A stretch of 63,643 nt of DNA, the filler included, from Collodictyon triciliatum (lineage: Eukaryota), in NCBI GenBank assembly GCA_043381765.1. It is 5 parts of 5 records of this genome, joined end to end, with 100 filler letters (N's around TTAATTAATTAA, not from the genome) between each part and the next. Parts side by side here need not be neighbours in the genome. Positions count along the whole stretch, not along the records: positions 27,943 to 41,848 come from JBHJMP010001899.1; 4 more parts are not named here. One strand, 5' to 3'. Position 1 is the first letter of the stretch; each line of letters opens with the position of its first letter. Of the stretch, positions 27,843 to 55,948 are shown in pieces. The notes under the pieces are model-generated. The model searched no databases. It saw only the letters and a list, made by a program, of their open reading frames with translations, and was not told where the DNA came from. Both the position numbers and the translations under genes were made by a program.

Positions 27843-27942
27843 NNNNNNNNNNNNNNNNNNNNNNNNNNNNNNNNNNNNNNNNNNNNTTAATTAATTAANN
27901 NNNNNNNNNNNNNNNNNNNNNNNNNNNNNNNNNNNNNNNNNN
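27843..27942. other. Artificial contig-joining linker
   Basis: N44-TTAATTAATTAA-N44. Confidence 0.98.
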
Positions 27943-32756: not shown

Positions 32757-33956
32757 CGTCCTTATGTTCAACTTTTCCAAGTGACAGTATCACATAATCA
32801 TGAGGTTATGTCAACATGTATAATGAGTTGTTTGAATGTATCATGTGGCCAACAAAGGACCTGACCTCCAACGTGTTTTGGACCCTGATGAACTAGACAA
32901 AATATTTGAAGACCCAAGTGTCCTAACCGAACTTCAGGTGCGTACTTATGCTTTAATTAATGATGATTTTCTTCTTGGAACTGCATATCTCATCGGCGAT
33001 GTCTCTTTGATTATTTTATTCTTTTCCGCCCATTTAACATATCTGATGTGGGGAGTTTTTGGGCGCGTGTCATACTAAAACGATGCTATCATAGTCTCTT
33101 CAAGATTTTCTCCCAGAAGGAACCTCATATCAAGAAGTAAACCACCAATAGATAGTTAGAGATTGCATAAGACCAAAAAAAAAAATACATTTTGTCATTT
33201 CTTGTAATTTTGGGTATATACCCACATTTATGGGCTACCATTCATATTAAAACATTTTACTGAATTCTCGAATATATATCTTATTTCACTTGTATAAAAA
33301 AAACAAACATGCTATTATAAAGAAAATATATTCTGCCCTGTGTATTTTTGCTGTTGATTTGGATTTAAATGAAGCATGTTATTAATTTTTTTTACACACC
33401 ACGGAATAATTGAGTAACGCTCGGTGCATAGATTCCCGAGCTTGTTCGTTGCGCTCCCTTCAGGCAATTTCTTGCCAAGCTCAACTATGCCATCAAAAGG
33501 TAATTGCCAGTGTTCCTACAGCAACAACAGAACAAAACAAAAAAAAAGACAACTATTATATGACCTAGCAGTTTCTTATGACCATCTTTGTTTGGGGGAT
33601 GGCTGATGCCCGAAAGAAAGTATGTGTAAAAAGATAATATAGTACGAGTGCCTTCATACAAGTTTTCCTAGGGGATATGGAGCAGAGATTTTGGCCCCGT
33701 TTGGTATCCAGATTCCGCCGAATGAACCAATTGGTAAGAGCAAAGTTATAATCACGACAGACAACCAAATCCATTTGTATTGTTATGCCGTTGCCTTTTT
33801 CGTTGTAACAGCGTTAGTTTCTATATTTGGGGTAGCCACGAATACTGTATGCAGAATTCCAGATACCAACTGACTAGTAGTGTAACATTTGTGGAATCTA
33901 ATTATTTTGCAGGCTTGGTGTCTCTACTCAAAGCAATTGCAGCGCACAAGCGTTAA
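30619..33956 (+). CDS. RPN13: Proteasomal ubiquitin receptor RPN13/ADRM1
   Basis: PRU domain: IISFPAGKL...VIPDPRKGTL, DEHGFLHLEWKER, GRVYVLKFPDSKVKHFFWMQD; C-terminal DEUBAD-like: LQDFLPEG, ELVRCAPFRQFLAKLNYAI; stop TAA 33956. Confidence 0.92.
32470..32757. repeat. (TTTTC)n followed by (CT)n polypyrimidine tract in RPN13 intron
   Basis: Directly visible. Confidence 0.95.
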
Positions 33957-34903
33957 GGGCTGTGGCAATATTCGGCATTTTGATGATATAAATGTGAAGA
34001 GTTTTACAGATTGAAGGCATAACACCTTAAAATATAAAATAAGTCTTGGTTTTGCATATTGCGTGCTTGAGGGAAAGCGGGTTATCTATCGGATGACAGA
34101 ATTGGTTGATGAGGTGATGACTGATGGGGTGGCAGGAGCAAAGTGGTTGTGGGACTATGGATTTCCATTCGCAGAGGAGAACCACAGCAACGTCACAGAG
34201 ACGACATTCGGACGGCTGATTGGGATGTAGGATTACCTGATTTATCGACATGTTCGTCATCCTGTGTCATTAGGTCTGGAATGGGGCGTGGTATACAGAA
34301 AGAAGGTATGAATATCAGCCAGAAACAATCGATTGATACTCATAAGGAGTGTAGTTGCTACAGATGGCAACTGGGTCAGACGAGTTGAACCTAAAATGAA
34401 TTTTGAAAGTTACCATATATCCAGAAGAAGAAAAAGCAGAAGAAATCTGCCGGAAAATGCAGAAATTCAGCAGAAAGTAAAATCCAATAAAGGGAAAGTC
34501 TGAGTCGGTGGTTTTCTTGATTAGGATATGCCTTCTGGATGCCGAAGCCAACACAGAAATTAGTGTGATTTTCCTGGGGCGGAATTGCAGGCGAATTTCC
34601 AATGGTACAGTCAATTTGCTGCGGTATTAATAAACGCTAGTTGGATCATGTTGGATCTCAAAGTAATTTACAGATCATTGCAGGAAGCTGAATACTAGGG
34701 GTTGAGACTGCCCGCTCGAAGAAATATAAAAACGAAAGCAAGACAGGCTGAAAGTGAGCCTCAAGAGCGGGTCTTGACCTTGGCTGGGAGAGGGGGAGAG
34801 AGGGAGAGAGGGAGAGAAGACTGCTGCACCGTGAGCCTTAGGGGAGACAAAAGCCAAAAGACTTACCCACCTTGTTACTACGCCCTAGACGTTCAGGGCA
34901 AAA

Positions 34904-37455
34904 ATGGAGAAAACTACTTCGCTCTACACACTGACCCCACTTCGCATCAGCTGCCCAACCAATCTCGGTAAGCAACAACTCACACAGCGTTCTATTCCAA
35001 CGCCAAGATAGGGAGATATTTTGAAAAACAAAAAAAAATAAAAATAAAAAAGAGAAAGAAAAAAACATCAATATTAGTAAAATGAAGGACACTTGCTGGG
35101 AAGATAGGAGAACTTCAAAGGAAACAAAGAGCTAGTAAATGGGAAGTTGGAGAGTTTTGGAGTGAAGCAAAAGTATATCCGATGGACGGAACACTTTTAA
35201 CAAGCCATCCACCACACCCAACAACCCCAATTGCAGGAACATTCCAGCCGCAGACTGTGCCAGCCTGGAAAGCGGTGGACAAAGATGCGGAAGCGGAGAA
35301 GGCGGCGTCTCTGGAGGAGCTGCGACGGAGTCTGCAAGAGCTGCTTGTGCACGACATTGTGCCGCAGCAATTCGTAGAAGGGAAGGAGGCCGCCACACAA
35401 GCGCAATTGCGCACCACTTTGGAGAAAAGGATAGAGACGGAGACGGAGACGGAGACGGCGACGCAGACGGCGCTGGAGGAGCGGGTGACGCGGGAGGCCG
35501 GGGAGGGGGTTGCGCGGGCGCAGGTGCTGAACCGTGCGCTGTGGCGCAGCCGGGTGACGCGGGGGCTGCACTCGCTGACGTGGGCGATTGTGACGGGGCA
35601 CGACGGGCTGGCGCGGCGGCTGATCGAGCAGGGCGTGCACGTGGGCGTGGAGGACGAGCACGGGCTGAGCGCGGCGCACCACGCGGCGCGGCGGGGGAAG
35701 GTGGGGCTGCTGGAGGCGCTTGTGGCGGGCGGGGCGGACGTCAACCAGGCGGGGTCTGTGGCGGGGGGCACTGCGCTGCACGAGGCCGCACGCACGGGGC
35801 AGTTCGACGCGGCGCGCTGGCTGCTGCAGCACGGGGCCGACGGCACGCGCCGCGATGCGGATGGCTGCACGCCGCTCCACTACGCCGTGCGCGCCGGCCA
35901 CGCGGGCCTGGTGGATCTGCTGTCTGTGGACGGGACGGCCGTGCGCGTGCCCGATGCTGACGGCGCCACGCCGCTGCACCACGCGTGCATGGCCACAGCC
36001 ACAGCCACAGCTACAGCCACACGCGTGATTGCGCTGCTGCTCGCGCGCGGGGCGGCCCTTGGCGCGCAGGATGCCGGCGGGGACACGCCGCTGCACGAGG
36101 CTGCGCTGCACGCGGACGCGACGGTTGCGCACGCGCTGCTGCACGCGCTGCTGACCCACACCCACACTGACGTCAACACGAAGACAGAGACGGAGACGGA
36201 GACGGAGACAACCGCCGGCGCGATTGTGGACACGGCCAACGAGGACGGGTGCACGGCACTGCACTACGCGGCGCTGCTGCCCGACCCGCGGCCGTTCCTG
36301 CTGCTGGCTGCGCACGGGGCCTCGCTGGGGGCCGTGGATGCGGACCACCGGACGCCGCTGCAGATCGCGCCGGCCGCGTGGCACGCGCTGCTGCCGTCCG
36401 CGACACCGCCTGCGCCGCCCGTGGTGCGCCTGCTGCCGCGGCCGCTGCCCCCGCTCAAGGCGCGCGTCGTCCTCACGCACGTGCCGCCCGAGCGCGTCCA
36501 CGTGCGCGGCTGCCCGATCCGGCCGGGCTTTGTGGCCGAGTTCCCCGCCGCGGACGGCACCACGGTGCTTGTGGCTGTGGCGCAGGACGAGCGGTGCCGG
36601 CCGTTCGAGTCGCCGGCCGCGGTGTCTGGGCACGTGGAGCGCGTGCGGGGGTCGCGGGCGGTCTTTGGCGAGCTGGCCGTCCACGCGGGTGCGCACGGGC
36701 GCCTGGTGCACCTGCAGTTCTTTGCCTACGAGCACTACGGCACGGCGCACCAGGCCCTCGTCGGGTTCTCGGAGCGCGTGCCCATCGTCCCCGTGGACAG
36801 CGCTGCCACCCGCCGCGACACGCAGCTGCGCCACGTCTGGGCCGACGCCCACCCCGCAAACGGCGCCGCCCCCTGGCCGCCCCTCGCCGCCGCCCTCCAG
36901 CGCCACGCAGCCGCACAGCTCGGCCCCGACGCACGCGGCCTCGCCCCCGCAGACCTGGACTACCTGCGCACGCGCTGCTGCCCCTCCTCCTCCTCGCCGC
37001 CGCCCCTGTCGACATCCGCACCCACATCCGTCCCCCTCCGCGTCTTCGCCGACACCTGCTGGCCCTGGCTGCACGCCGTCCTCAAGACCCTCGTCCACGC
37101 CCCGGGCGTCCGGGCCCTCTGGAACTTCGGCGCCCTCCACGGCTTCGTCCCCCGCGACCAGGCGGAGGCCCTGCTGCGCGCCCTCGAGCCCAACACCCTG
37201 CTCGTCCGCTTCTCGGACGGCGACCCCGGCGCCTTTGCCGTCGGATACCTCGGCCACGACCTCCGCTCCGTCGTCTGGGCAAAGATCTCCCCCGACCAGC
37301 TGCGTCCCGACCACAACCTCGCCGACATCCTCGCAGACTCCAAAATGCCCCGCATCGTCGACTCTCACGGCCTAGTCCACGACTCCGCCGCCTTCCTCGC
37401 ACACTTCCGCTCCTCCTCTGTCCCTTCCTCCTACGTCACCGTCTTCCAGCCTTGA
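34904..37455 (+). CDS. Ankyrin-repeat protein fused to a Dictyostelium-type STAT module (DNA-binding-like domain, linker/EF-hand-like region, SH2, C-terminal Tyr)
   Basis: 757-aa ORF 35182-37455 with 7-8 ankyrin repeats (GGTALHEAA, GCTPLHYAV, GDTPLHEAA) followed by WPPLAAALQRH, RGLAPADLDYL, WPWLHAVLKTL, LWNFGALHGFVPRDQAEALL...NTLLVRFSDGDPGAFAVGY; a phase-compatible first exon 34904-34967 (GTAAGC donor, TTGCAG acceptor at 35236) is likely. Confidence 0.88.
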
Positions 37456-38624
37456 CTCTCGTCTTCCTATACCTCTGCACCATACCTCACGGGCCGGGCT
37501 CACAAAATCCTCTCGGCGCCGTTCTGCTTCCTCCCCACCTTCCATCTCTATCTTTTCATTGAATCAGTCACAAAATCTCCTTTAGCTTCTCTCGTCTTCC
37601 TCTCACGCGATGCCCATCGACTAAACGCTCCATTATACACTCATCTACAAATATCTGAGTATTGCTGATGTGCTGTGCCAAGCAGCCCCGAATACGCATT
37701 GGTCGTGCCCTCCATCTCTTCTTCACCAATCAGCCTTTGGCACACAGATGACTGCACAGCCCGTTCCTTTTCCACCATTTATTACACTTTTGTCCCTTCT
37801 GCAACTTGGTGTCGTCTCTATGGTGCTCCCCTTTGCTGGTCTCGCGAACGAACAAGCTCCTCAAATGCCCCTACTACCGCATCTCCTTCTGCGTTCATAC
37901 GAAAATACATAACGTCATTAGCTAACCCTATCTAAAAAATAAAATAAAAAAAAAAAAGACAGAAAAGCCAACACTCTCAAATTATTGTGCGGTTGGATTG
38001 AATTCTAGACAAAAAAATAAAATAATATGAATAATAAATCAAAATTCATAGGCGGCATATGTCATCCCTTCCTTACGTTTTCATCACACAAATAATAAAT
38101 GAATCATAAAACAAAAGCGAGTGTACTCATTATTGATATCATAATTATTCCTTTTTTTTTTTAAAAAAAAAAATCAATTGTCAATAATAAAAACAATGAG
38201 TCACCAATTTTTTTCCCTGTCTCCAAAAAATAAGCGTCTGCCATGAGCTTGTTAATATGCGAGATTTGTCGAGATTGTTCCTGGGGGTAATGATATAGTT
38301 TCATGGTATATGTAATCATAACAAATATATAAAACAAAAAGAAGAGAAGCCTCATCCATGTATTAATATTTATATCATGGCAATTTCATTTCAGCATTTT
38401 TTTTGAGGGTATATTTTTCTTATTCTCCTTATTATTATTATTAATGAATCCAATAACAAACTTTATATTCGGCACGAATTCGATGTTGTGAGATGAATAT
38501 AGACTTTGAGAATTCCCGCTACAAAATAAATAAATAAAAACGTACATTCTAATCTGTAAATATGAAAGAAGTGTCTGTTCTACAGACGCATCATAATCGC
38601 CTTATAATATAATATTGAACTCCA

Positions 38625-38748
38625 CAAAACCAAAACCAAACAAAATCCAATCAAAACCAAACCAAAAACAAAAACAAAAACAAAAACAAAAACAAAAACA
38701 AAAACAAAAACAAAAACAAAAACAAAAACAAAAACAAAAACAAAAACA
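38625..38748. repeat. (AAAAAC)n microsatellite
   Basis: Directly visible. Confidence 0.93.
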
Positions 38749-38898
38749 ATGCATATGACAAAATGAGGTTGTAAATGAATGAAAGTTCGGAAACCTCCCA
38801 ATATTAAACCTTGATATTCAGAACATAAAATTAATAAATGGTCGACATGAACTACATATCACCAAATCATCCTTACGAAATTGCAGCGGCTTAGAAAC

Positions 38899-41330
38899 TC
38901 AAACCGAGTTTTGCTTTCTGGCCATCTCCATCCTTTGGGTTGTAAGGTCTGAACCAGATACGACAGATTGGAATAAATGCTTCCTATAATTAAATGTCAT
39001 TGAATCCCTTTTCAGATACATAGAGGAACTCAAGTTGAATTACCGAAATCATAATCTATTAATTTCTAATACCATCCATTTGTCTTTAAAGTATTTTGCT
39101 TATATTTGTCTACATATACTTTCGATATTGCCTCCTTTTCTTTCTTTCTTTTTTCCACTCTCTTATAACTTAACATCATATAATATTCAATTATTTACTA
39201 AATATACATTTACATACTCATAGACTGGTCCAAATCTGACGGTGTATATTCACTAAAATTGATTTGTGAATGGGCATAAAGTGCGCTCGTTGTCGACTCT
39301 TTCTATACATTTCCCCCCATTTTACCACTAGTTAAAAGGACTGAAGCGTGGTACTTGATTCATTTTTTTTTTAATAGAAGCAAATAGTTTACTAATATGA
39401 ATAAAGATGTTACATCAATTTCTTTCCAATCTTCTTCACCTTGGCTCCTTGGCTTCTCATGTTCAACAACTTGATTTAAAGTAACATTTTAGGAGAAAAA
39501 AAAAGCCTACAACCAACATTTCCCAGAGTAGGGTGATGTATATATGCAGACAATTAATGTTTTCTTTCGTAAAAAAAAAGAAGAGAATTCTCATCCAAAA
39601 AATCATGATATCGCTTTATGTCTCTGAAAGAGAAGGGCAGAAAAAGAAAAAGACCCGCATTTTGAATTGATTTTTCATATGTTTTTTTTTTTATATATAC
39701 AGAGATAACCTTCTTGGGTCAAATACGATGGAGGTCTGGAGATAAATCTGAGTGGATTAATTTTATCCGAATAAGTATGTTACCAATAGATGAAGTTTCA
39801 AAAGTAATAAAGAAAAAACTTAAGTTCCATACAAACCCATAAGGTAGTTTATGTCTCAACACAATTCCGTTTCCAGGGACAATATCTATATGAATAATTA
39901 GCAGAAAGATTACTATACTAATCCTCATAATCAATACATATCCCAATGAACTAATTTGATTTACCCATATCCGAGACACAAGGGATATTGATTACCGTCT
40001 GAACACCTACCCTCCGCAATAGCAATTATACATATAAATAAAATATGACATGAACGTAAATATCTACCCATGGGATAAACAACAAAATCTCATGTTACAG
40101 TCGACATCTTTGTTTTCATATGCTATTATTCTCACTTTTTGAATTCTTTTTGTGCGGTTGATTGCCGGAGTTTCCATTTGCAGCTATTATCAAAAACTTA
40201 TTTATAACATTACCATTGTATATTATTACAACTTGATTTGTTTTTCTAGATTGCAGAACGAAGAAAATGAAACCAAAAAAAAACAAAAACAAAAAACAAC
40301 TACAATAACTAAAATATAAAACAAATTAGCTATTTCATAATCATGTAGAGTATAAAGCCTTTTATGAGGACGATTTCTCTGTGAACGTGAGTATTCATTA
40401 CATTTCTCATTTTTCGATTGCGATGAAGATTTTTGTGTCTTCTTTGGGATCCCTGGTGAACCGCACAAATAAAAAAAAAAGGAAAAAAAGGGGGAAAATA
40501 TATATAAGTTAGCCATGAAATTTTTACCGCATAAATGGTTTGCCTACCAGAAGCCAACATGGAAATGCCGGGTGCGTTGCTCTGTTCCACTTCGTCCATG
40601 GCTCTTTGTGCTATATTTTGGATTTGATTATCACCTATTCACGATTTAGTTTGGCATTCCTCTCTGATAAACAGGCATATTTCAGTCACGCGTGTTAATA
40701 AAAAAAAATCGGTGGGGTACTGATTGTCTGATTGTCACATAATTAATATAAATTTTCAACCAACTTTTCGCTTGGTGGGGTGAATCGTCGACCACCGGTT
40801 TCATCTCAGAAACCTGTTGTGATGTCCTCTTTTTCCTTGTTGAATATCATACATCCCATTGATTAGAATTTTATTATGCCAAAATTTTGTACAAATCATC
40901 TAGAAAAGGCATTTTTAAATCAATCAATCAACAATGAGTGAAGTATCAAAAAAAAAAGTGAGTTAAATAAGTGAAATAGGATTAGTAAATGAAATGTTAT
41001 ATATCAGTCACTGCTCCGTATGTTTTAGACAGACTACTTCTTTCAAGGAGAGGAATATTTTATTCTTCTGGGGTTAGCTTAGACTTACGAGTTCTGTGGT
41101 GTTTGTTGTTGCATTTCACTCCCGAAACTGCCTGCAAGTGGCGAATATCAGAAGGGGCATTTTCAGTATCGTATTATCTAGCCTTTTTAAACACTCTGAT
41201 ATACAGCTGGAGTCCAGCGACCAAGCAAACACAAAGTAAATTGAACATCAATTCATCAATACAGAAATTATTGACAAGGTTTACCTGACTCCATTCTGGC
41301 CAGGTTTCTTCTTCAAGCGCGCACCCAGGA
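38899..41330 (-). CDS. Hypothetical multi-exon gene, product unknown
   Basis: Series of short AG/GT-bounded, less AT-rich segments on the minus strand (MDEVEQSNAPGISMLASG; SPGIPKKTQKSSSQSKNEK...; KHLFQSVVSGSDLTTQRMEMARKQNSV*); no recognisable domain. Confidence 0.35.
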
Positions 41331-41848: not shown

Positions 41849-41948
41849 NNNNNNNNNNNNNNNNNNNNNNNNNNNNNNNNNNNNNNNNNNNNTTAATTAA
41901 TTAANNNNNNNNNNNNNNNNNNNNNNNNNNNNNNNNNNNNNNNNNNNN
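41849..41948. other. Artificial contig-joining linker
   Basis: N44-TTAATTAATTAA-N44. Confidence 0.98.
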
Positions 41949-42285: not shown

Positions 42286-45200
42286 CAATATATTTGCTGG
42301 CTTCAAGTCACGATGGAGAATAACAGGGTCAAGTGAATGAAGGTAAGCCATGCCTTCGATGATTCCTGTGACAATCCTCTGTCTGTGTGTCAAAAGTATT
42401 CATCAGCACTGGATTACAGAATATGTCAGAAGGAGAGTAAATACTTTTCTTTCATCCTCAATTCAGTATTTGGGTCTTGTAGAACGTGATGTAAACTCCC
42501 AGGCTCTACTAACTCCATAACAATCGCCAACTTGTGTAATTCGCGGCATGCCCCAACAAATTCGACAATATTTTTATGCCTCACTTTTCTATATCAGCAT
42601 GGATATTAATAAATTAGAATCAGAATCAGAGTTAGAGTCAGAATGATGATTTATATTAACCTGAATATCATCACTTCGCATATGAACAGTATGTAACTTT
42701 CGTCGGGTGTGATTTTGTCGTGTTGAATAAATTTTTTGACAGCAACTCTTTTTCCCTGTGATAGTTTATCAATCAACGCAAATGATATATAAAAAGGATG
42801 ACTTGTTAGACTATAAAATTTGATTTTTGAAAAAGAAAAAAAACCTGTTGACTTTAATCCCCACATTTTTCAAAAAAAAATCTAGATGAAAATAATAATG
42901 GAATTGATAGTCCTACTTGCCTTGTAATTCCCAATAAAAACAGACCCGAATGCACCTCTATCGATACCATTGGGTTCTAAACTGATGTCTTCTATGTCGA
43001 TTTCCCAATCCTTCTTATGTCTAGGAATCTGGACATCATCGCTTGAATTGCTAGTGACTTTTTGTTTAAATTCATAGTCATGAATTCCTTCGGTGCCACC
43101 CGAGTACGAATTCTTATCTGGTAAAGTAAAGATAGATATATCTTGTCCATTTCCGGGAGATACCCTTTCAAACTAAATCGATATTCGTTCATTAAACAGT
43201 CATAAATATAATTAAAATGTCGATTTTTTAGTCTGAATCTTGTATTGAGAGGCTAATAAATAAATAAAAAAAAATACTTCATTATTTCTATCTTCTGTGC
43301 CGGATATTTGTTTTAAAAACACAGCTCGTTTGCTGAATTCCTTTGGAAATGCCTTGGAAAGAAATTGTTAAGGAAAAATTATCTTCAGGGCATAAAGTTG
43401 TCAATATAAAAAAAACCTGATAAACCCTAGCATAACTACTTTCTTCTGTAAATGGCATTTCTTCTAAATAGCATAATCCTTCCATTTTCTTGAATTTGTG
43501 ACCAAGCTCCTGAAAATCATGACTATTCAATTTTTTGGAAAAACTTTACCTTTTCGAATATCTATGCATACCTCATATATCGTATCCGATAACAAAATCT
43601 GCCCTCCATAGCATATTTGACAGAGTTTTATTGCTCTCGATATAACCTGTCATTATTATCTTTATTTACGAGCATATTTTTATTTTTTACAGCAATCGAA
43701 GTAATATTCTCATTTTAACCTTCCCATAATAGCGTGGTTTTGTTTCATGGTTATCCTGCTTCATAGAACACAGACCAAATTGTATGGACTATTTGATAAT
43801 AATTTAATTTTAAGAATTCGTTATGGACCTTGCTATTTAATGTACTAAGAAAAGCAATCATTTCATACCATTTGAACCCTTAACCCATTTAAATTCCCTT
43901 CATCAATAGGTTTTCCTTTTTCATGACACAATATTTTCTTCGGCCAATCAGCATGAAAAAGTGCTCTCTGAGAATCGATGCAAAATCTATCAAAAATATA
44001 TATCATATAAATGCACAGCAATACATCTTGTACTTGAATAATCATTCATTTACTTGATGGCATCTACAGAATCCTCGAAAAGGACAATGTAATTTTCTCC
44101 ATCAAATTGGCTGACATAACCTCTATAATTTGAAATAATCTAAACGACGTTTTAGTTGATGGATCTCTTCATGTCCAGCAGCTTCTACCTGAGGTTATAT
44201 AATTGTGCTGAACTTGAAAATAAAGCATACCTTTCGTAAGATTTCATTTTGCTTCACCACAGCATCTGCCATGGCATCCGGAATATCATCCCAGAGCAAC
44301 TCTGACCCGTTTATCCTGGTGCAAACTATATACAGGTTTCCCTGGGGCGGGAGCTGCTCTTCACTCTCAAACTCCTTCAGTAAATGTAAAAAGAAACAGC
44401 TCTAAGATGGCCGGCTAATTTTGGACAGAGTGGCAAAAAAAATTCTTACCATGAACGATTTTCCATCGTACGAATCAGTTTTAGCGATTAATACCTGTTT
44501 TTTTAAACATTAATTAATTAGAAATATATGAGTAATTTTCAAAATACTAGATATTACATTGAGCAATCTAGTTGCCTCCTGGAAAGAAGGTCGATTATCA
44601 GGATTTTGGTCCCATAGCTTTGCGATAAATTCTTTCATTTCGTTGGGAATTTCTTCCGGAATATTTGGTCTCAGCTGTTCTCTTACTACCCGATAATTAA
44701 TCGACGAGATGGCCTCAATGTCAAAGTAAGGATTTTTCCTTGAAATAATTTCCCAAGCAATTATACCAAAGCTGTATACATCCGATTTTGCTGTGTATTC
44801 ATGGCCACCGATAACTTCAGGTGCTAGCCATAATAAACTCCCCATTTGTTCCTCTGTACCAGACCCTTGTATTTTTGTTAGCCCAAAATCACTATTGCAA
44901 AAAAAAAAAAAATTAAAAAATCTTTTAAGATATAAAGAAAAAATGCTGCTGGGTTGTACACGACAATAATCCTTCATAATCAATCATACTTACCTGACTT
45001 TGAGGCGATACCGACTGTCAACCTTTTCATTTAATTTTTTTAAAAAAACTGATTTGAAATTGAAATAATATTCATTGTATCAATTAATACCAGAATGTTG
45101 AGGCTTTTCAAATCTCGATGGATAACTTGCGGATTGGACATATGAAGATACTGCATTCCTGTTTGTTTGTTTTTTTGAAAAATAGTTATGTCAAAATCGA

Positions 45201-48200
45201 AATTGAAGCTAAAATCGTGATTCTATGTGATATTAAGAGAAAAGGTATTACCTTTTGAAATATCCAACATAAACTGAAGCTTTTGTACATAGCTTATCGA
45301 TTTATTTTGGTGAAGAACGTCGTAGAGGCTTCCGTTTTGCATATACTCACATACAAGGCAAGGATTTTCAGAGTCGAAGCAGGCGCCCATATATAAAACG
45401 ATGTTTGGATGGCGGAGCTCACTGAAGAAAGTACTGTTTTGGTTAGAATCTAGTTGAAACTGATAATTATGTTGTCCTTCCAAGAGACATTTTTCTAAGA
45501 AAAAAAACGTACACCATAATAGAAATCTCTCTTTTGAAGGACTCAATCTGCTCTTTGTTTATCTTATTTTGTTTGAGCACTTTGATAGCAACCTCAGTCC
45601 CGCGCCATTCACCGCTAAAAACCTTGTATCATTTTCAGTAAAAAGAGTCATATTAATTGAATTTTTGATTTCGAATTATGTGTATCTCCTTACCTCGCCA
45701 AAGCTTCCGCTCCCAAGTAATCGACCAAAAACAATTTCGTCTGATTGTATGAATCCGTATAGTTTCTTTTCGGCGCCTTTCATGTTATCATTCATTTTCT
45801 TTCGGTATAGATATGCCATCATCACTGCGATTATGATGACTATTCCTGCTCCTATAGACCCTCCAATTATTCCGTACATGCTGATTGCAGATGATTGAAT
45901 ATCTTGGGGTGATATAATACTCTTAGTTATTTCCCTTGAATAAAATTTCGAATTATTAAACAAGGTTGTTCATTAATTTACCTCTTTCACATCCGTCCTA
46001 ATAACCGGCGATAATTTTAGAAGTATTAATGCTTCTTTTAGAGAGCTATTCAGGGTTGAAAAATTATGCAGTAAAATGAGATATCACCTTTTCAAGTACA
46101 TAGCCTTCATTGCAAACACATTCCAGGCGATGGATATCCATGTGTGAGTTTACAGGACATGCTTTTGAATCATATTGATTAAGAGAAATTAAAATAATTG
46201 TTACTTTAGTTGAATGTGATTTTAAATAAATATTTTCCTATTGATAAAAAATTATTTTAATATCAACCAGCATGAGTTATAGTAAATCCTTCGCATCCAT
46301 CGCAAGGTCTATCTGTAATACTATCATCATTTTTTGAGCTTATGAAATGAATTTTGAATCCATTTTTGGACTCGAATAGTATTTTATCATCGATGTATTT
46401 TCCCGTTACAAGGTCTGAAACTTCAGAGATATTCTTATCCTTAAGATTATAAATAAGCAACCTGATGTTTATGAATTTTTTAAATTTCTTTTTAATAATC
46501 ATTCAAAAACTTCGATAAATTTTAGTATAAATGTATTTCTTACTTGTCTCTTTCCTGAATTCTTTTTTCAACGATGATATGAGTAGCATGTGGAAGAATC
46601 CAGGTACAGTTTGTGTTTTCTAGATACATGGCCTCGCCGCTTCCATCGTCAAAAACCGAGCTTGTTAAGGTGCTACTAATGACTTTCCCAGAATATGAAC
46701 AGAAGCCTGTTTGAAATCATTCGAGTTACGATTTTTTCATCCTATTTTGTAAGAATACATAATAATTTCTTTAAGTTCAGTTGAACCTGGCTTGTAAGCT
46801 GAGACTTGGTTTGTAATCGAAAACCCGTTCGTTCCTCCAAAACCAACAATCACTCCTCCGATTGATATGCTGCTCCCTTTGTATAAATCCTGTTGCACAT
46901 ACGAATTGCCAGAGAATAAAAGACTTCCAGCTCGTTTGAAATCTAAATGGATTTAATAGAAGTGTAAGTTATTTGGTAAACGATATTTTTTTATTATTGA
47001 AAAGTACCGTGCTGAATCATAATTGCCGCCCTCATTCCGTTGTATAGATTTGTTCCATCAATAACAGAAGATGTTCCATATTCTCCACACTTGACGTTTG
47101 ATATTTGGTAATCCATCGTGGATTTAAATTTTTGCTCGCTCCAAGTTTGGTTTCCTTAAAATCGATTTTAATTATAAAAACTTGCCTCGTGTCTGTCCTA
47201 TTCATGCTTTCATTCTTTTTCGTACCTGTGCTATACACCCACGCATCATTGAGCATGTTTCCTGAGAAGTCTTTACCCCCGTACATCAAAAAGCTGTCGT
47301 TATCGATGACACACATGGCATGGTGCATTCTTTTTGCCTATATAATTTCGCCACATATTTATATTTCCTGCTCACATAAGGACATAATTTACCTACTTAC
47401 CGGTATATTGCCTGTAATATTCGCCGAATTGGAAATATTTTGATTGAAGTCAATAACAAGTGTTGCTGAATAGAATTCAGCTTTCTTCGTTCCTGATACA
47501 ATCTATTGTTTTCGGATTTATTATTTTGAATTTATTTTTGTAATGAATGAAAAATTAGTTGATGCAAAAATAAAATCACACATACAAAAGAGTTGGTGAT
47601 ATCCTACCTTTCCTCCCCACATCCAAATTTTGTCATTTATTCTAACAGACCCTATTCCGATGCGACCTTGAGGTCTCTGATATGTTGAAAATCCATTCGA
47701 ATATTGTATGATGTTCCATGTCTTGGAATCTGAATAATAGTTACCACGTTTCGTTAAATATTGGCAAGAATAGCTTGATTCTTACCATTTAACGTAATAA
47801 TGTTTATGTACTAGTATTTTGATGAATGATTATTCACCTTTGTTGAATGACCAAATTTTGTCGTCAAGCTCACTATTTTCTGTTCTTCCTCCGTATATGT
47901 ACACAGCACCCGATGTTGATGTCATGATAGCGCGAGCTCTTGGTGGTGGACCCATATCTGAAGACCCAAAAAAAAGACATCTCCATTCTCTGCTACCTAA
48001 ATTTCAACTGGTGAATTGCAATATTCACCCATTATGTTTTCTTATGTAAATATTTATAAGCAAAATAAAAACAGAGTTACCAATATCAAACAACCACAAG
48101 TCGTTCAATAGCACTTCTTCTATATAGTCTGTTGACCCTCCAAATATGAAAAACGAGGTTTCAGAGTCCTTGGTGATTCCGGAATCGATTCTGTGTATTG

Positions 48201-51200
48201 GCGACCTCGATATGGATGTTTCTGACCATGCCCGAAGCTCTGAAGTATTTGATAAAAATGAATATCATTTACAAAATTTAGTGTTTTTATTCTTTCTTTT
48301 TTTTGATAAAATAATCTTTTTTCTTTTTTTTTTACTTGTATCCCAAGTCCAGACATCGTTTGTGACAAGATTGCCTTTATTTGCGCCTCCAATCATCACC
48401 AGTGAAAAATCTTTTGTTACACTGATGGCACCATATTTGGGTGGCGGATAGCTCAGTGGGAGTGCGGGGTTGGCGAGCCCGTAATTTTCACGATAAATGA
48501 CTTCCGATGAATCTTGAAAAAAATGAAAAATTATTGTAAAAATATATTTTAATAAATAATCATCAGAAAATGATCTTTTTTTTTTAAGAATCTTCACCGG
48601 TATTTATGATGTCCATGTCTGACAGCACTTCTCCTTCCTTAATCCCTCCAAATATGTGTAAATTTCCGTCAAACAGACCATATGCGTGATTCTTTCTGGA
48701 AAAATTACACAACCCACTCTCTTCATCACAGGATATACACTTCTGCAAAGTAACTGTGCCATCCCTCATTATCTCAAGTGAACCTACGAAAAATTATAAT
48801 TATATAAAATAATCAAGTTTAATATTTTATCTTCGTCATTAAAGCCTGAACCAAATATTAAGCAATATATATATATATATATATATATTACCCAACTCAA
48901 TAATCAAGATGTGGCTGTTTTCACCGCGCTCGGTGCTCCCTCCAAACAATATCAATCTGTTATTCGAAGCCACTATGGAGCCAAAGCCCAGTCTTGGTAA
49001 AGCTTTGATTGTTTTTAGTTCTATCCACAAATTCATTCCTACGCGCGGTTGGATTTATATTGTTTATACCCAATATTAATACAGCGCTGAACTAATTTGA
49101 ATAATTAATACAAAATTGTTGTTGAAAACCTGGTTCATATCTATACAGTGAGTTCTGCAAATCTCCTGCTCCCTATAAATATGATATGGTTCAGAATATA
49201 AATCAATTTTTTGTAAACTTTATTTCAAAATTAATAGTAAATCTTACATCACTCCCACCAAAAACAAATACATGTTCATCTTTTCTTGCGCACATAGCTC
49301 CCACTAGTTCAACTGATATGTCAGCTCCTCTTTTCCATCGACTTTCTGAAGGATAGAATGCGTATATATGCGTATCTTTTTCGTTAGTCTGCCCTCCAAT
49401 GACAATCCCGTAGTCTTCCATTCCAATAAGACAAAACTGAGTTCGACTTGACGGTATATCTCCAACCATCTCCATTATATTCCAGACTGATTCGACTATT
49501 ACATAATTTTCTGTTAGTATATCAGTAAACTATTGAATGATTTTTGTAAGCTGCAGCGTTGAATAAATGTATTGCCAACCTGGTTTATCCGTTGTATATA
49601 TAATATTCATCGGATAATATCTTGTGTAGTCTTTCACGTCTGCAGAGCTGCTACCGCCAACGACGTATATTTTTGACCCTATAACACACCCAGCTCCATG
49701 AATTGTCGGTGGAAGGTCAAAGGTCAGTGCAACAGACTCAGTTTGCCCTAAGCTTCTTACATCTAAAGTTTAAGACATAATATAAAGTGACAATCAGATA
49801 AAATATAAGCCCACGTTTTACACCCATGATAACAGATGAATCACTGAGAAATTATCTTACACACCCTTTATCTCTGTTTTGTACTCTTTATTTTGAGGTG
49901 TACAATATCCCTTTGAGCATATTTTGATGGTATGGAGATTTAGTTGATGAAAAACGTGTCTTGCATAATAACAAAAACTGATGTGGTTTGTTTTCTAATT
50001 ATCAAAGGCATTTATGTAAAAAACCTGATTCTGAAGCGGTTGGTATGAGCCCTCTGGGCAAGCAATACAGTCTCCCCGAAAATTAATGTAACGGTCTTCT
50101 TCACATAAACAGCCATTTTCGTCTGCAACAAATCCTTTGCTGCATGCTATTCAGGATATGAAAATTGGATGATAATCTACATGATAATACAAATGCAAAT
50201 CGAAATGAAAATATCGTGTTTGCTCTATATTACAGAAAAGCTTCATTTCGAATCCTTGTGCCGGGTTTGCAGCCGCAGAAACATCGAATCGCAGAATCGA
50301 GGTGGACGATGGAATATATATAACTGTTCCTTTGTCGTATGAGCCCAATCCAAGCTATTATTGACCAAATAACAAGTAAATATTCCATATTAGACAGATT
50401 TTTGGGATTTTTGGAACGATGCTTTTTTGGTTTCTTTTCATAAATTTTGGGACTATTCTTGTTTATTATGCCATTTAATACCATTTTTGAATGTATGTCG
50501 TAGACAATCAAATCATCATCACAATCTGAACTCGCTCCGAGAGTCAAATTTGCACCAAAACCAATGTCCATATTTTGAATCTAATTGATAATTTTTCAAT
50601 AAGGTATATTAAAAGTAATACATAACAATTTGTGTGGGTTTTGATAGTAATATTACCACAATAAAGTTCGTTTTGAGTATATTCCAAATGCACTTCGTTC
50701 CTGGATAATAAGAAAATCCTCCGCTTCCATCGCTGATAGTACCAACTTTGCTGTTTACAGTGTACTCACCTTCACACCATATTTTACCTAAAGATATGAA
50801 ATATTCAACACTTTTATAACCTACTGAGTTTGGTAATAACTTCACCTTTATGGCTTAGAGCTTCATGATAAAATATATTCTGTGTCTATACTTGTGTCAA
50901 GTCGATAGACCGAGCTGGTGACGGCTGATACAGTGTTAATTATTCCCCCGAAAAGGTATATCGAACCATTGTGAATGACTGAAGATGATTTAATGAGTCC
51001 TGGTGGCTTTCTTGATTGAATCGTATTTGTCCATGTATTGGCTTCAACTAATGAGATATGAATAAAAAGAATCAAAATTCATGTCCAAGAATTAAATGCA
51101 GCTTTTTTTACAAATAATAGAAGCTTACCATCGAATACAAACAGTTCATTATTTATGGTATCATCACCATCTATTCCACCAAAAACGTGCAAACTCGAGT

Positions 51201-54190
51201 AGAATCCAGAGACAATAACATTATCAGCCGTTATTTTACCCAGACCACCGATATAATTCCATGTTTTCGAACCTATGAAAATTGAGCGTGGATAATCTCT
51301 ATATCATCTGCTATCATTTATAAAAAACATATAGAAAAATCTACAAGTTTAAAATGAGAACCAATATTTTTTTTCCATTATTCGATTCAAAATGAGCACC
51401 AAGATTGTTGTATATACCTTCATAAAAACACCGTATTTCTCTTTCAAGATATTTTTCTCCGTATTCTATAGTGGTGTCCATGTAACAAAACATCTCATTC
51501 ATGGAAAATCCAAATGCGTGTGTCCTTGTTTTGTTTGAGCCATCTCTTACATTAATTACATAGTGGCTTTTATCTTCCATGTCCAATACAAATATATCTT
51601 TTGAAATGCTTGTTCCGTTTGTGCTCATCCCTCCCCAAATAATCATCTTGAATCCAATTATTGAATAGAGGAAAGAATATCTTGCATCCAACGATTCGTA
51701 CGTGTTATGGTTACATTTCATATTTTCCCACGTTTTATTGCCTATATAGAGTATTTAAACATCTGAACAAAATTTTTATAGACAAATTCATTGAGATTCT
51801 GCTGGTGAAAGGAAAATAAGTTACCTATATGGTATTGTTTCATAATTGGCAAATCGTTTTCAGGAAAGTATCCACCAATCAAGTAAAATACTCTGTCATA
51901 ATATCCGAAGCCCTGTCAGAATAAAAGATAAAAAGAGTCGTTTTTTAATTAAGATTTCAAAAATTCGTGTTTGGTTTTGGAATACATTTTCAATTGGATT
52001 GTTCATTATTAAGACGTAACCCCTACCGCATCAATGACACTCGGACCACAATCCGACTGACGAGGAAAACAGACGGACTCTTGAAGTACTCTATCCCATT
52101 TTTTGGAATCTAATGATAAGAGGAATTAAATGTGATTCCTTAAATTTTTTGAATGAGTTTATTAAACATTTAAAAAAATACCAGTGTAATATATCCACAA
52201 GTCGTTTATCGGCTGCTTTGTATCTAGATGCACAAGTCCTCCAAACATAGCAATTCTGGATTCATCCATCTGGGCTATGTGAGGCTCCTCTCTTCCGATT
52301 GGATACAGTGAGAGACTGCTATTTGTCCATCTTTGAATTCCTATTTTAATTTGAATTTATTGAGTGAGCAGATTTATGTAAATCTTGACTTGAATACAAC
52401 AAAGGGAGAATTATTTTTCTTAATTAAATAGAGATATACTAATTTCATTTTCTGGGTCGAATAAAGGTAAACTGAAAGGTGCATCAATCGAAAGTACCTG
52501 TATCGAAAACCCAGAAGTCATTCATCCTTTTTGTATTATGTCCACCCAAAATGAAAAATGAATCCCTTGAGAATGAGCCAGATACAAAGAATCGAGGTAC
52601 AGGCGAGCTTATGGGATAATTTGACATGAAATTTGGAACATCAGATGTCACGACTCGAGCCGTCATATTAACTATTTTATTTTAGAAAAGAACTTACTGC
52701 TTGTCATATTTTTAAATAATGCAAAAAAATTGGGTCAGCTTTAATGGGATAAAAACCAACCGAGATTGATTATGACAAGTTCATTTGATTTTTTGGAGAG
52801 ACCAAAGTCATATGAACCCCCAAAGACATAAAGGTCGTGCTTGTAAACTGATATTGCCGCAGTATACGTTGATACCACGTTTTCGAATTCCACAGGTTCT
52901 TGCCATTCATACGTTGCTAGTTATATTTTCGTTAGTTGTGAATGATTTTAGTAATTTTTCATTGATATTGAATATTGGCAAAGAGTACTTAGGTTAAAAA
53001 CCCATAGCGTAGGTGAGAAATAATAATAAATATCGCATCCTCCAAAAGCTACGATGGAATCCTCATAAGTTGTCATTTGTGTGTAAGAAAGCAAGGGAGA
53101 AAATATCTCTTTTTTCAGATTTGGTTTGATTTTTTTCCAAGAGCTTGTTTCTAAAGATAATTTTGTTGATACCTTTAATTAACAAACAGCTTGACTAAAC
53201 GTGTAAAAAAGTAATAATTAGAAGAAAATTGTCATACTGATATTGAATTCCCATAAATCTGAAACAGGATTTCCGTTGTAACCGCTCAGGATATAAAGCC
53301 TATGTTGATACGAAGCGCAGGCCATTTGAATTATGGGTTTTGGTTTGTTTTTTGAAGCATAAATCACTTTCTTCCATTCAAAGCTGTGTAAGTTGAGGGA
53401 GAACATTTCGTTTGAAGCAACCAAGCCCTCCCATGTGATTCCGCCAAATATGTAAATCTAAAAGAAAACCGTCAAATATTTGGGTTTTATAATTGAAAGG
53501 ATAAATTAACCTCATCGACACAAAACCCCTCCCTTGAATATACAGGAAAAAAGATAACCTCATCGCCCACTAGGTAAGCGCAATAGTATGTCCTCCTTTC
53601 AGGAATATTTCCAAAAGTTTTCGCCCAGGACCATTCCAATGATGCTAATTTCGATTTTATAGATTGATTTTTATCAAGACTACGTATAATTTATTGATTT
53701 TGAATTTACAATAGAATGTTGCAATTACCCGTGTTTAGCATCCACACTCTGTCAAAACGAGGTACTGGGTCGTCATACTCATTATTTTGACTGCAGAAGA
53801 TGGTGACATTGAATCAGAATGACTCCATGAAATGAATATGCATAATCTAAAAAGATAAGCGAATAAAATATCAAACTCGTCGCCCAAAAGGTATATTGTT
53901 TCATTCCTCGAAATTGTGTAGGCGCTTCGAAAAGGATTGGGAGCCATAGAAGAGTACTCCCATTCCACTTTTAATAAACGATTAAAATTATTTCTCATAA
54001 TTGACTTTCCACAACGCTTACTTTTTTTTTATTCAAAAGCATGGTTTTATATTGAATAAGAGAGGAATAAAATAAATGAATATTTAAAATAAAAACCTGA
54101 TAGTATGAAAACCACCGAAATTGGTATTGAAAAGAGGAATATCTTAATCGATCTTCGGCACAAATCGACAAACTTTCGAGGCTTTCTCAT
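42286..54190 (-). CDS. Receptor-type protein kinase: signal peptide, Kelch repeats, CUB, Cys-rich, Kelch repeats, CUB, EGF-like, TM, TKL kinase, degenerate class III cyclase domain, second kinase (3' truncated)
   Basis: Start MRKPRK...IFLFSIPISVVFILS; many Kelch GG motifs (IYLFGG, MYGGKDFSGNMLNDAWVY); CUB (CEGEYTVNSKVGTISDGSGGFSYYPGTKCIWNI; FDDGSGEAMYLENTNCTWI); TM MYGIIGGSIGAGIVIIIAVMMAYLYRKK; kinase 1 LGSGSFGEV/VAIK/HRDLKSLN/DFG/WLAPE/SDVYSFG; cyclase-like GLRVQM and GGQILLS; kinase 2 RGAFGSV/VAVKK/HRDLKPAN. Confidence 0.9.
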
Positions 54191-55848: not shown

Positions 55849-55948
55849 NNNNNNNNNNNNNNNNNNNNNNNNNNNNNNNNNNNNNNNNNNNNTTAATTAA
55901 TTAANNNNNNNNNNNNNNNNNNNNNNNNNNNNNNNNNNNNNNNNNNNN
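55849..55948. other. Artificial contig-joining linker
   Basis: N44-TTAATTAATTAA-N44. Confidence 0.98.

Follow-up and report, generated by a model that had tools for sequence, protein, structure and literature searches.

Structure of the locus

The window, a stretch of 63,643 nucleotides of Collodictyon triciliatum DNA, holds on its plus strand a two-exon gene whose second exon is a GC-rich island, and a convergent gene downstream of it (Table 1). These structures were traced with contigs of X1 and X2, sequencing runs of two related organisms, called here RNA-like because their RNA label is a guess; the contigs exhibited SMART-type adaptor ends, a T run, and GT..AG or CT..AC ends at 10 of 12 joints. 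X3 and X4 are environmental runs, X3 consisting of metagenome (DNA) contigs. Their short contigs matched the island and its flanks with 0-1 mismatches, bridged no boundary and carried no firm habitat information.

Table 1 Features of the island gene and its convergent neighbour, in window coordinates.
Feature	Position	Strand	Evidence and remarks
Exon 1: 5' UTR, 21 codons and one base; ATG at 34905; GC 0.51	34666..34967	+	X2 contig 10
Phase-1 intron, GTAAGC...TTGCAG ends; GC 0.368	34968..35236	+	X2 joint and sequence
Exon 2, the GC island: 738 codons after a split Gly codon, TGA stop	35237..37455	+	Reading frame; X1/X2 contigs
In-frame hexamer microsatellite, 6.2 copies	35434..35470	+	Further arrays at 35992-36021 and 36178-36209
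Ankyrin-repeat region	35566..36381	+	Pfam Ank_2, E 2.7e-40; colinear with Diphylleia P0121
Ig-like beta domain of the STAT core (DNA-binding domain in STATs)	36469..36795	+	Model strands, residues 24-132
Strand-asymmetry change point: third positions G-rich to the left, C-rich to the right; Ig-like/linker border	36718		Likelihood ratio
Helical linker (EF-hand-like in STATs)	36802..37128	+	Model helices, residues 135-243
SH2 domain; invariant Arg (R270 of the C-half) at 37207-37209	37129..37407	+	Pfam, 1uur_A
Conserved C-terminal Tyr (Y345), candidate phosphorylation site	37432..37434	+	At least 90% of 22 rows
3' UTR, pyrimidine-rich; GC 0.50, GC skew -0.40	37456..37906	+	X2 contig 15 covers 37435-37906
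Convergent downstream gene, 3' end, overlapping the island gene's 3' UTR	37764..37889	-	X1 contig

At the 5' end, X2 contig 10 covered 34666-35018, starting at 34666 after 21 non-matching letters, and one RNA-like X2 contig joined 34966 to 35236 with GT..AG ends. With 24 letters on the exon-1 side, below the minimum of at least 31 on the shorter side set by our bridge rule, this joint weakly supports the 5' intron. The X1 and X2 contigs covered 35236-37906 with no internal joint in the 2.2-kb exon; the sole joint within it, from 36123 to 36928, was found in an X3 metagenome contig with 21 letters on the shorter side. A previous sequence-only reading of this DNA had described a normal-looking phase-1 intron, an uninterrupted 2.2-kb exon and microsatellites inside it, and all three descriptions hold. 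Compared with the Diphylleia and Rigifila proteins, the hexamer arrays represent insertions, and the X1/X2 contigs showed length differences of 6 and 3 bases at 36162 and 36983.

At the 3' end, an X1 contig with a T run before 37764 joined 37889 to 38207 (73 letters on the shorter side) and ran on through CT..AC introns, thereby linking the 3' flank of the island gene to an AT-rich neighbour gene. The 522-base RNA-bounded exon of this neighbour (38461-38982), tried as an AT-rich long coding exon, had stops in three of three frames, and was dropped as a comparator because it is non-coding.

Chimeric assembly, or the joining of contaminant DNA to the host's, would explain the large contrast in composition; no boundary-spanning DNA read was seen, the X3 DNA contigs being 151 bases long and not bridging, and chimeras are known from amplified single-cell assemblies (bioRxiv 10.64898/2026.06.11.730069). 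Yet the frame is continuous from exon 1 over a canonical intron into the island, independent RNA-like assemblies from two related organisms hold the 5' spliced join (24 letters) and the link between the 3' UTR and the neighbour (73 letters), the nearest N runs lie at 27942 and 41849, and the protein family is eukaryotic. This explanation, by which the sequence-only reading was to stand or fall, is close to refuted, and we reject it.

That reading had also proposed a retrocopy, for which there is no direct support. The locus lacks the marks of a processed retrocopy (no introns, a poly(A) remnant, target-site duplications): the 5' intron is kept, no target-site duplication or flanking direct repeat was found at the locus, and the A-rich tract downstream of the transcript (37933-37957) belongs to a set of 10 such runs within 4 kb. 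Loss of 3' introns mediated by a partial cDNA would best account for the absence of introns after the first, and is a plausible reason for the intronless state; it leaves the GC content unexplained.

Ankyrin repeats fused to a STAT-like core

The structure model of the C-terminal half had a pLDDT of 89.1. In Foldseek it matched 1uus and 1uur over its full length (357-358 columns, E 6e-17 and 3e-16, TM 0.53-0.55), with STAT6, STAT5, STAT1 and STAT3 ranking below. By sequence, residues 217-290 of the query matched 1uur_A (E 3.5e-9), and residues 156-301 matched the linker and SH2 domain of human STAT2/5. The Pfam SH2 match (E 0.0018, 18.7 bits) falls short of the 21-bit cut-off; R270 is unchanged in all 22 aligned rows. 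The Pfam scan of the island protein did not detect STATa_Ig and EF-hand_12 directly, both of which its relatives carry. The tail motif with the C-terminal Tyr recurs in P0121, P0123 and P0272.

The protein thus has the SH2 domain with the phosphotyrosine-binding Arg, and the Ig-like domain and EF-hand-like linker directly before it, as in the STAT family. It shares with the Dictyostelium-type STATs (1UUR/1UUS) this domain order, the invariant Arg and a conserved Tyr after the SH2 domain. In place of their coiled-coil four-helix bundle, for which Pfam detected no family here, it has ankyrin repeats, whereas amoebozoan relatives carry Dict-STAT-coil. Since the N-terminal coiled-coil is lacking, we file the protein as STAT-like and not as a canonical STAT. 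Judged by what STATs do, it would most likely dimerise via SH2-phosphotyrosine contacts and act in tyrosine-kinase signalling.

The gene documents a fusion of ankyrin repeats and a STAT-like core in relatives of Diphylleia and Rigifila, and thereby extends STAT-type phosphotyrosine signalling modules beyond Amoebozoa and animals. Among the papers listed by a limited literature search, none had the term 'SH2 domain' alongside the Diphylleia and Rigifila taxa, which does not prove absence from print.

Relatives and descent of the gene

The STAT core matched Diphylleia rotans P0121 with an E of 1e-55, and the ankyrin half aligned colinearly with the same protein at 44% identity over 288 columns, compared with 30%, of a generic kind, for a bacterial ankyrin match. 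Both halves are colinear with Diphylleia and Rigifila proteins. Full-length colinearity, comprising the ankyrin repeats, the core and the C-terminal Tyr motif, extends to D. rotans P0121 and P0123, Rigifila ramosa P0124 and Logan P0272 (39%, 26%, 30% and 31% identity, respectively), from which the island protein differs by the microsatellite inserts specific to its lineage. In the tree, the core fell, apart from the amoebozoan STATs, into a clade of 9 rows with 100/99 support made up of Diphylleia, Rigifila, one Logan protein and the window protein, with an end branch of 0.52 against 1.14-2.0 for its clade mates.

This GC-rich gene is also present, at about 97-99% identity, in the two related organisms, and the known members of the family are confined to Diphylleia, Rigifila and further assemblies. 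The C-half had no relative among viral contigs (12 pattern matches), nor did metagenome contigs yield one with a single-protein query (184 pattern matches) or with the three-row alignment A3 (198). A protein search with the whole exon retrieved 1665 proteins at E <=1e-3 among 8000 candidates, and the 120 best listed were all ankyrin-only. Of two other window exons used as queries for the host lineage, an importin-beta exon had no match and a kinase exon had 29, the best of them bearing no species name.

Because of the colinearity of both halves and the 100/99 clade with Diphylleia and Rigifila, bacterial or viral transfer is rejected, as is, on the same grounds, a chimeric assembly; the horizontal acquisition suggested by the sequence-only reading is not borne out, the gene being present in two related organisms with its nearest relatives in Diphylleia and Rigifila and none in viral contigs. 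Judged from these sequence relationships, the gene was inherited vertically and not acquired from another organism. What we show here is a genuine host gene, transcribed, spliced and vertically inherited, whose main coding exon forms the island.

Extent and edges of the GC island

GC content was 61-82% per 100 bp across 35301-37400, compared with about 33% in the surroundings. Per 1 kb, it reached 0.63, 0.75 and 0.57 over 35001-38000, whereas the remaining 59 windows had 0.125-0.50, most of them 0.26-0.45. In 200-bp windows with a step of 50, values above 0.55 occurred only in the island (35201-37351) and in an LRR exon (56901-57401; 0.555-0.60). Third positions of the reading frame 35239-37452 were G 0.45, C 0.44, A 0.05 and T 0.06, and exon 2 has a GC3 of 0.89 and a GC1 of 0.77. 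From 35389 on, GC3 in 50-codon windows was 0.84-1.00, with two exceptions of 0.76-0.78 over a microsatellite. The Pfam-supported ORF pieces of other genes, obtained by a Pfam scan of 100 of the 229 ORFs of at least 70 aa, showed a GC3 of 0.24-0.53 (n=13), and 0.59 for the LRR piece. The CpG observed/expected ratio was 1.11 in the island vs 0.85 in the remaining window. A GC- and CpG-rich island amid AT-rich DNA, as the sequence-only reading had it, is thus confirmed.

The description of this island as abrupt is right only in part, because the coding edges are ramps and not steps: GC3 went up through 0.68, 0.72, 0.84 and 0.94 on the left, and down through 1.0, 0.96, 0.90 and 0.86 on the right. 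GC falls sharply, to 0.28, at the transcript end (about 37907). The UTRs had a GC of 0.50-0.51 vs 0.28-0.42 in the adjoining flanks, and the intron, at the island margin, stays at 0.368. Local introns span 0.25-0.37, which puts this one at the upper end together with the two introns closest upstream, both at 0.37. A local GC3 peak with gradual fall-off, as seen here, is one of the marks of a GC-biased gene conversion hotspot.

Divergence and amino-acid composition

In the island core, mismatches per contig were 0/245, 2/143, 1/247 and 6/1087 for X1, and 2/201, 1/98 and 5/1396 for X2, compared with 12/407, 14/568, 8/353, 12/472, 7/361 and 2/126 in the left shoulder, exon 1 and UTRs; compared with the shoulders and UTRs, the core has diverged 4-6 times less from the relatives. 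Of the coding differences listed, 14 of 21 were synonymous, vs 27.6% expected at random. The listed differences were balanced, 8 sites having A/T in the window where the reads have G/C and 10 the reverse, and they are unpolarised. The island looks actively maintained, not decaying.

The ratio of Gly, Ala, Arg and Pro (GARP) to Phe, Tyr, Met, Ile, Asn and Lys (FYMINK) was 4.78 in the island protein, compared with 1.14-2.39 in seven relatives aligned in A1, 2.69 in Logan P0272 and 0.54 in a pool of 14 exon pieces from other genes. Restricted to the STAT core, it was 4.09, vs 0.81-2.21 in 12 relatives and 1.13-2.21 in P0121, P0123, P0124 and P0272. In seven of seven pairs, sites with GARP here and FYMINK in the relative (14-41) outnumbered the reverse (5-9). 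The protein itself is pushed towards GC-coded residues.

A composition so unlike that of the host, in a family whose known members all come from Diphylleia, Rigifila and further assemblies, could be the slowly ameliorating relic of a transfer whose donor was a GC-rich eukaryote within the same wider group or a virus with such a gene, exon 1 and an intron being gained later. We consider this very unlikely: the core diverges less than the flanks, with no one-sided decay, the ramped edges lie inside coding sequence, the in-frame microsatellites are lineage-specific, the gene is common to two related organisms, its end branch in the tree is short, and the viral contigs and the two metagenome scans held no relative. 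We infer that the extreme GC is kept up now, with G/C alleles favoured at all codon positions, and is not a relic of foreign origin; the GC1, the GC3 and the GARP shift are the evidence for pressure at all positions.

Selection on the mRNA or DNA would be another way to keep it up: if introns in this genome are recognised by their AT-richness, a high GC might shield the 2.2-kb exon from cryptic splicing or premature polyadenylation, or serve expression. The enrichment is indeed found only in mature-transcript sequence and peaks away from the splice site and exon ends, synonymous sites of the core are unusually conserved between the relatives, and X1 and X2 have no splice joint within the exon. 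However, a GC3 of 0.9-1.0 with a shift towards GC-coded residues far exceeds what the removal of a few signals needs and is what a non-adaptive bias typically produces, a kinase coding exon of up to about 470 bases has a GC of 0.34, and a change from G to C within the exon (see below) has no obvious selective reading. Selection is accordingly rated as quite unlikely.

A mirror-image strand asymmetry

The third-position G/(G+C) was 0.655 to the left of about 36718 (n=432) and 0.206 to the right (n=223), and the log-likelihood ratio of this change point was 62.2 vs a maximum of 12.2 in 300 shuffles. Fourfold sites had G225 C80 A15 T22 on the left and C121 G26 T6 A13 on the right. The left differed from the right (p 5e-28) and not from the complement of the right (p 0.21), which corresponds to a reverse-complement symmetry. 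For A and T, the fourfold sites showed a trend only (22 vs 15, p 0.32; 13 vs 6, p 0.17). The skew carried on into the UTRs, with +0.08 in the 5' UTR and exon 1 and -0.40 in the 3' UTR. Such a mirror-image flip in one exon cleanly marks a strand-asymmetric process that has a defined centre, and could locate recombination or transcription-collision sites from sequence alone.

Transcription itself could be that process. In a transcription-tied, non-recombinational mutation bias, sense transcription from about 34666 would expose the plus strand, read-through past the neighbour's poly(A) site at 37764 would expose the minus strand over about 36700-37760, and the R-loop-prone, GC-skewed DNA would meet near 36718. 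The skew is co-oriented with each transcription unit, extends into the UTRs and reverses about 1 kb past the poly(A) site of the neighbour, and an X2 contig end at 37464 with a reverse-complemented template-switch adaptor weakly hints at an antisense 5' end. PMC3787257 gives a human analogue, in which closely spaced genes, convergent pairs among them, have co-oriented GC skew and R-loops at both their 5' and their 3' ends. The island shares with those gene ends an undepleted CpG-rich island, a skew co-oriented with transcription and close convergent genes, and differs from them, as described there, in that its skewed DNA is all protein-coding and the skew reverses within the 3' third of the gene itself. 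This bias would account for the skew but not for a G+C of 0.75 in a 33% GC genome; other transcribed exons in the window stay at GC3 0.24-0.53, the intron is likewise transcribed and yet not enriched, and the contigs show neither strand nor expression level. As the full explanation it is unlikely.

A possible ongoing GC-favouring bias

Our tentative preference, unproven and slightly more apt to be wrong than right, is a GC-favouring bias in fixation, still at work and of the kind that biased gene conversion causes, together with a strand-asymmetric process. GC-biased gene conversion at a recombination-prone exon would be the most likely force, and could act between alleles or, ectopically, between paralogous coding sequences; the ectopic form would affect the exon and spare the intron. 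No paralogue of the island gene was found within the window, a loose end of X2 at 36710 being the single hint. Gene conversion alone predicts no G-vs-C asymmetry. A superimposed strand-asymmetric process would have the plus strand gain G to the left and C to the right of about 36718, as expected if the exposed single strand is the plus strand on the left and the minus strand on the right; it could be resection flanking a break hotspot, or the encounter of sense transcription with polymerase reading through from the convergent neighbour.

The sequence-only reading had offered a local hotspot of GC-biased conversion or mutation among its possibilities. Of the three, this fits the results obtained best, with the ramped edges, the amino-acid shift and the low divergence of the core in its favour. 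The biased-conversion reading is nonetheless unproven because the intron is not GC-enriched: it is the only intron within the island's reach, and a purely regional bias should have raised it, its position at the island margin being kept in mind.

Hotspots of GC-biased gene conversion and GC3-rich genes are known in birds, mammals, grasses and the honeybee. The island resembles these in its local rise of GC3, its shift to GC-coded residues and a peak falling with distance, and differs in being limited to a single exon of a single gene within a protist genome of 33% GC, in its non-enriched adjacent intron, and in the sharp internal G-vs-C flip, which the conversion model does not predict. A vertically inherited gene can reach, and stay at, a GC3 of about 0.9-1.0 in such a genome, and a suspicious-looking island is cleared of the usual artefact and transfer explanations.

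In a more specific and doubtful form of the preferred bias, the exon would be a long-lived, sharply centred double-strand-break recombination hotspot in a deep-branching flagellate lineage whose sex is undescribed, conversion giving the near-saturated GC3 and resection the mirror asymmetry centred at about 36718. One locus would then give a sequence-only readout of meiotic-type recombination and its break point, and biased conversion could remodel the composition of a signalling protein. Elsewhere in the window, the LRR exon (GC 0.53, GC3 0.59) shows a weaker version of the same effect, as the sequence-only reading had observed.

Composition and extent of the GC island

The GC island of the window is real and extreme. 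Its GC content in 1-kb windows was 0.63, 0.75 and 0.57 over 35001-38000, compared with mostly 0.26-0.45 elsewhere, and in 100-bp windows it reached 0.61-0.82 across 35301-37400. When the whole window was scanned in 200-bp windows, only two places exceeded 0.55, the island and the LRR exon at 56901-57401 (0.555-0.60), which the sequence-only reading had rightly taken for a weaker version of the same effect. Third codon positions of the frame 35239-37452 were G 0.45, C 0.44, A 0.05 and T 0.06, against a GC3 of 0.24-0.53 in 13 Pfam-supported ORF pieces from other window genes and of 0.59 in the LRR piece. The saturation of third positions with G and C was thus confirmed, as were the abundant CpG (observed/expected ratio of 1.11 versus 0.85 in the remaining window, that is, without depletion) and the microsatellites of the long exon, three in-frame hexamer arrays. 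The term abrupt fits only in part, the edges being ramps inside the coding sequence, with GC3 of 0.68, 0.72, 0.84 and 0.94 on the left and 1.0, 0.96, 0.90 and 0.86 on the right. The GC content was intermediate in exon 1 with the 5' UTR (0.51) and in the 3' UTR (0.50), fell to 0.28 past the transcript end, and in the intron (0.37) was inside the local intron range of 0.25-0.37. A coding kinase exon of the window (up to about 470 bases) showed a GC content of 0.34 and the LRR exon was intermediate; therefore long exons are not automatically GC-rich here. The N runs closest to the island are at 27942 and 41849. Further N runs, each of 44 bases, form four pairs with 12 bases between partners and a spacing of about 14 kb, a regularity that suggests masking more than gaps in the assembly; their positions are those of the filler between the joined parts.

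Coordinates of the island gene and of other features in the window
Feature	Strand	Positions	Remark
Exon 1	+	34666-34967	
Intron	+	34968-35236	
Exon 2	+	35237-37455	GC island
C-half	+	36400-37452	STAT core: Ig-like domain, EF-hand-like linker, SH2
Inverted repeat		36695-36761	18 nt, imperfect
3' UTR	+	37456-37906	
Hexamer microsatellite		38626-38749	21 copies
Tyrosine-kinase-like kinase exons	-	44513-45558	
Kelch-repeat exons	-	47035-51754	
LRR exon	-	56883-57746	
Longer N runs		2221-2634, 7855-8156, 19203-19803	
Paired 44-base N runs		13929-14028, 27843-27942, 41849-41948, 55849-55948	filler

The island exon belongs to a contiguous transcribed gene

Of sampled words from 33000-40000, 29% were present in X1 and X2, two sequencing runs of related organisms whose RNA label is a guess only. 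Contigs of these runs carry SMART-type adaptor ends and a T run, and 10 of their 12 joints show GT..AG (plus-strand genes) or CT..AC (minus-strand gene) ends, so that they behave as spliced RNA. They covered 35236-37906 with no joint within the 2.2-kb exon, in agreement with its description as uninterrupted. The intron proposed beforehand is matched exactly by a joint 34966->35236 with GT..AG ends in one X2 contig; this contig has only 24 letters on the exon-1 side, below the 31-letter bridge rule, and its support for the 5' splice join is suggestive and short of firm. The reading frame also backs this join, the ATG at 34905 being followed by 21 codons and one base, then by an intron with GTAAGC...TTGCAG ends. 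On the 3' side, one X1 contig showed a T run before 37764 and a joint 37889->38207 (shorter side of 73 letters), with further CT..AC introns beyond, indicating that a convergent downstream gene ends within the 3' UTR of the island gene; the same contig, assembled independently, ties the 3' flank of the island physically to host sequence that is AT-rich. Among DNA contigs, none bridged the boundaries, those of X3 being only 151 bases long.

Recombination with partial cDNA is a route to 3' intron loss, and a single 5' intron followed by a long intronless exon fits such cDNA-mediated loss. A retrocopy, one of the three origins proposed, has no direct support: its hallmarks were sought at the island gene and none was found.

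Two adaptor joins fall within the C-rich third of the exon: an X1 contig has a template-switch adaptor ahead of 37287, and an X2 contig has its reverse complement after 37464. They may be library artefacts, or else the 5' ends of an internal sense and an antisense transcript, respectively. The hexamer array at 35992-36021 drew very many contigs (summed depth of about 1850 in X1, 1700 in X2 and 20230 in X3), and their loose ends were all GC-rich in X1 and X2, so that these libraries contain further GC-rich transcripts bearing this repeat, of whatever organism. The hexamer microsatellite downstream falls in an exon of the minus-strand gene that spans 522 bases and is transcribed but non-coding. 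Short contigs with 0-1 mismatches were also found on the island and its AT-rich flanks in X3, a subsurface metagenome, and X4, a freshwater metatranscriptome (shares of 0.08 and 0.06); as a lead only, samples of this kind appear to contain the source organism or one very closely related to it.

The protein joins ankyrin repeats to a STAT-like core

Pfam recognised the ankyrin repeats at E 2.7e-40, and an SH2 domain at 18.7 bits, short of the 21-bit cut-off. Searched exhaustively with HMMER, the C-half gave 214 matches at E <= 1e-3, headed by three Diphylleia rotans proteins (E 1e-55, 8e-37 and 1e-29) and a Rigifila ramosa protein (E 1e-16), followed by amoebozoan STATs bearing STATa_Ig, EF-hand_12 and SH2. 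The closest solved structure by sequence was Dictyostelium STATa (1uur_A, E 3.5e-9), then human STAT2, 5, 1, 3 and 6. An AlphaFold model of the C-half, built from 22 aligned rows (pLDDT 89.1, pTM 0.83), retrieved 1uus and 1uur first with Foldseek (E 6e-17 and 3e-16, 357-358 aligned columns) and other STAT cores after them. In this alignment the SH2 arginine R270 is invariant, and the tyrosine seven residues before the C-terminus is kept in at least 90% of rows. Canonical STATs carry a coiled-coil, whereas the island protein has ankyrin repeats in that place, which makes it STAT-like in its core and not a canonical STAT. By analogy, it probably works in STAT fashion, through SH2-phosphotyrosine dimerisation. 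GC-biased islands and STAT-like proteins are of known kinds; the combination of ankyrin repeats and STAT core is unusual.

Descent of the gene

Horizontal acquisition had also been proposed and was not borne out. The Diphylleia protein P0121 is colinear with both halves (39% identity over the whole protein), and its ankyrin half is 44% identical over 288 columns, against 30%, the level of generic repeats, for the one bacterial ankyrin match that was set beside it. P0272, a 678-residue relative encoded on a Logan contig of 2250 bases, aligns colinearly from end to end and has the same terminal tyrosine motif. In a tree of 25 rows (the window, P0272 and 23 of 150 listed matches picked for coverage or known names), the window core fell in a clade of nine rows supported at 100/99, with six Diphylleia, one Rigifila and P0272, separate from the amoebozoan clade (99/98) and from animal-type STATs. 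The terminal branch of the window was short (0.52 versus 1.14-2.0 in clade mates). The amino-acid make-up of the window row deviates from that of the alignment. No relative was found in viral contigs or, in two scans, in metagenome contigs. Given the colinearity, the clade and these searches, transfer from bacteria or viruses was rejected; a transfer within the same wider group, from a member that is rich in GC, is unlikely.

The GC content points to maintenance

The ratio of GARP (Gly, Ala, Arg, Pro; GC-rich codons) to FYMINK residues (Phe, Tyr, Met, Ile, Asn, Lys; AT-rich codons) was 4.78 in the island protein, compared with 1.14-2.39 in seven aligned relatives and 2.69 in P0272; pooling 14 exon pieces from neighbouring genes gave 0.54. 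Restricted to the STAT core, the ratio was 4.09, versus 0.81-2.21 in 12 relatives. Sites with GARP here and FYMINK there exceeded the reverse in all seven pairwise comparisons (14-41 versus 5-9). On these sequence comparisons, the GC pressure extends to protein composition. The gene is also, as judged from its substitutions, under purifying selection: 14 of 21 listed coding differences to X1/X2 are synonymous, versus a random expectation of 27.6%, the 7-kb stretch having 15 further differences beyond those listed. Other letters per contig numbered 0/245, 2/143, 1/247 and 6/1087 (X1) and 2/201, 1/98 and 5/1396 (X2) in the island core, and 12/407, 14/568, 8/353, 12/472, 7/361 and 2/126 in the left shoulder, exon 1 and UTRs. 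A relic drifting to a 33% GC equilibrium should outpace its flanks; the core instead diverges 4-6 times slower than its surroundings. Together with the protein composition and the purifying selection, this points to a GC content that is maintained and not a relic. The unpolarised listed differences were balanced (A/T in the window versus G/C in reads at eight sites, the opposite at ten).

A mirror-image G/C flip and its possible origin

At the third positions of the exon, G prevails as far as about 36718 and C thereafter, with G/(G+C) of 0.655 on the left (n=432) and 0.206 on the right (n=223); the change-point log-likelihood ratio was 62.2, versus a maximum of 12.2 in 300 shuffles. Counts at fourfold sites were G225 C80 A15 T22 to the left of the change point and C121 G26 T6 A13 to its right; the excess of T over A on the left and of A over T on the right is a trend only. 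The left showed no difference from the right once the latter was complemented (p 0.21) and differed from the right itself (p 5e-28), so that the same process seems to act on opposite strands on either side. This flip is a new feature and the standout part of the finding. The GC skew extends to the flanks, with values on the left of +0.28 and +0.08 and a 3' UTR value of -0.40. The change point is at the border of the Ig-like domain and the linker and adjoins an imperfect inverted repeat. Eight bases from it, at 36710, an X2 contig has a loose end, matching only rightwards and preceded by 255 unlike GC-rich letters, which may represent a GC-rich paralogue or a conversion boundary. Third positions of the LRR exon, read in the coding direction, shift more weakly and in reverse order, C-rich then G-rich, so the flip is not simply tied to gene direction.

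Two processes together would reproduce the observed composition: a force favouring G/C alleles, and a quicker loss of C on the strand that is exposed as a single strand. They predict G far above C, followed by T and lastly A, to one side of the change point, and the complementary pattern opposite. The first would most simply be biased gene conversion, and ectopic conversion between coding sequences of paralogues would enrich the exon and not the intron (0.368). The flip is not expected from gene conversion by itself, nor a GC content of 75% from transcription by itself. The exposed strand would switch at the centre of a break, resection leaving opposite 3' tails, or else where sense transcription meets polymerase running past the poly(A) site of the convergent neighbour at 37764. 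The latter option has a human analogue: where genes lie close together, convergent pairs included, their ends are described as having co-oriented GC skew and R-loops (PMC3787257). Of the three readings proposed, local GC-biased conversion or mutation is the best fit, although unproven.

Other genes in the window

The Kelch-repeat and kinase exons are on the same strand, and two relatives of the kinase exon, P0299 and P0308, have Kelch repeats and kinase in one protein; 44513-51754 is probably one Kelch-kinase receptor-like gene.
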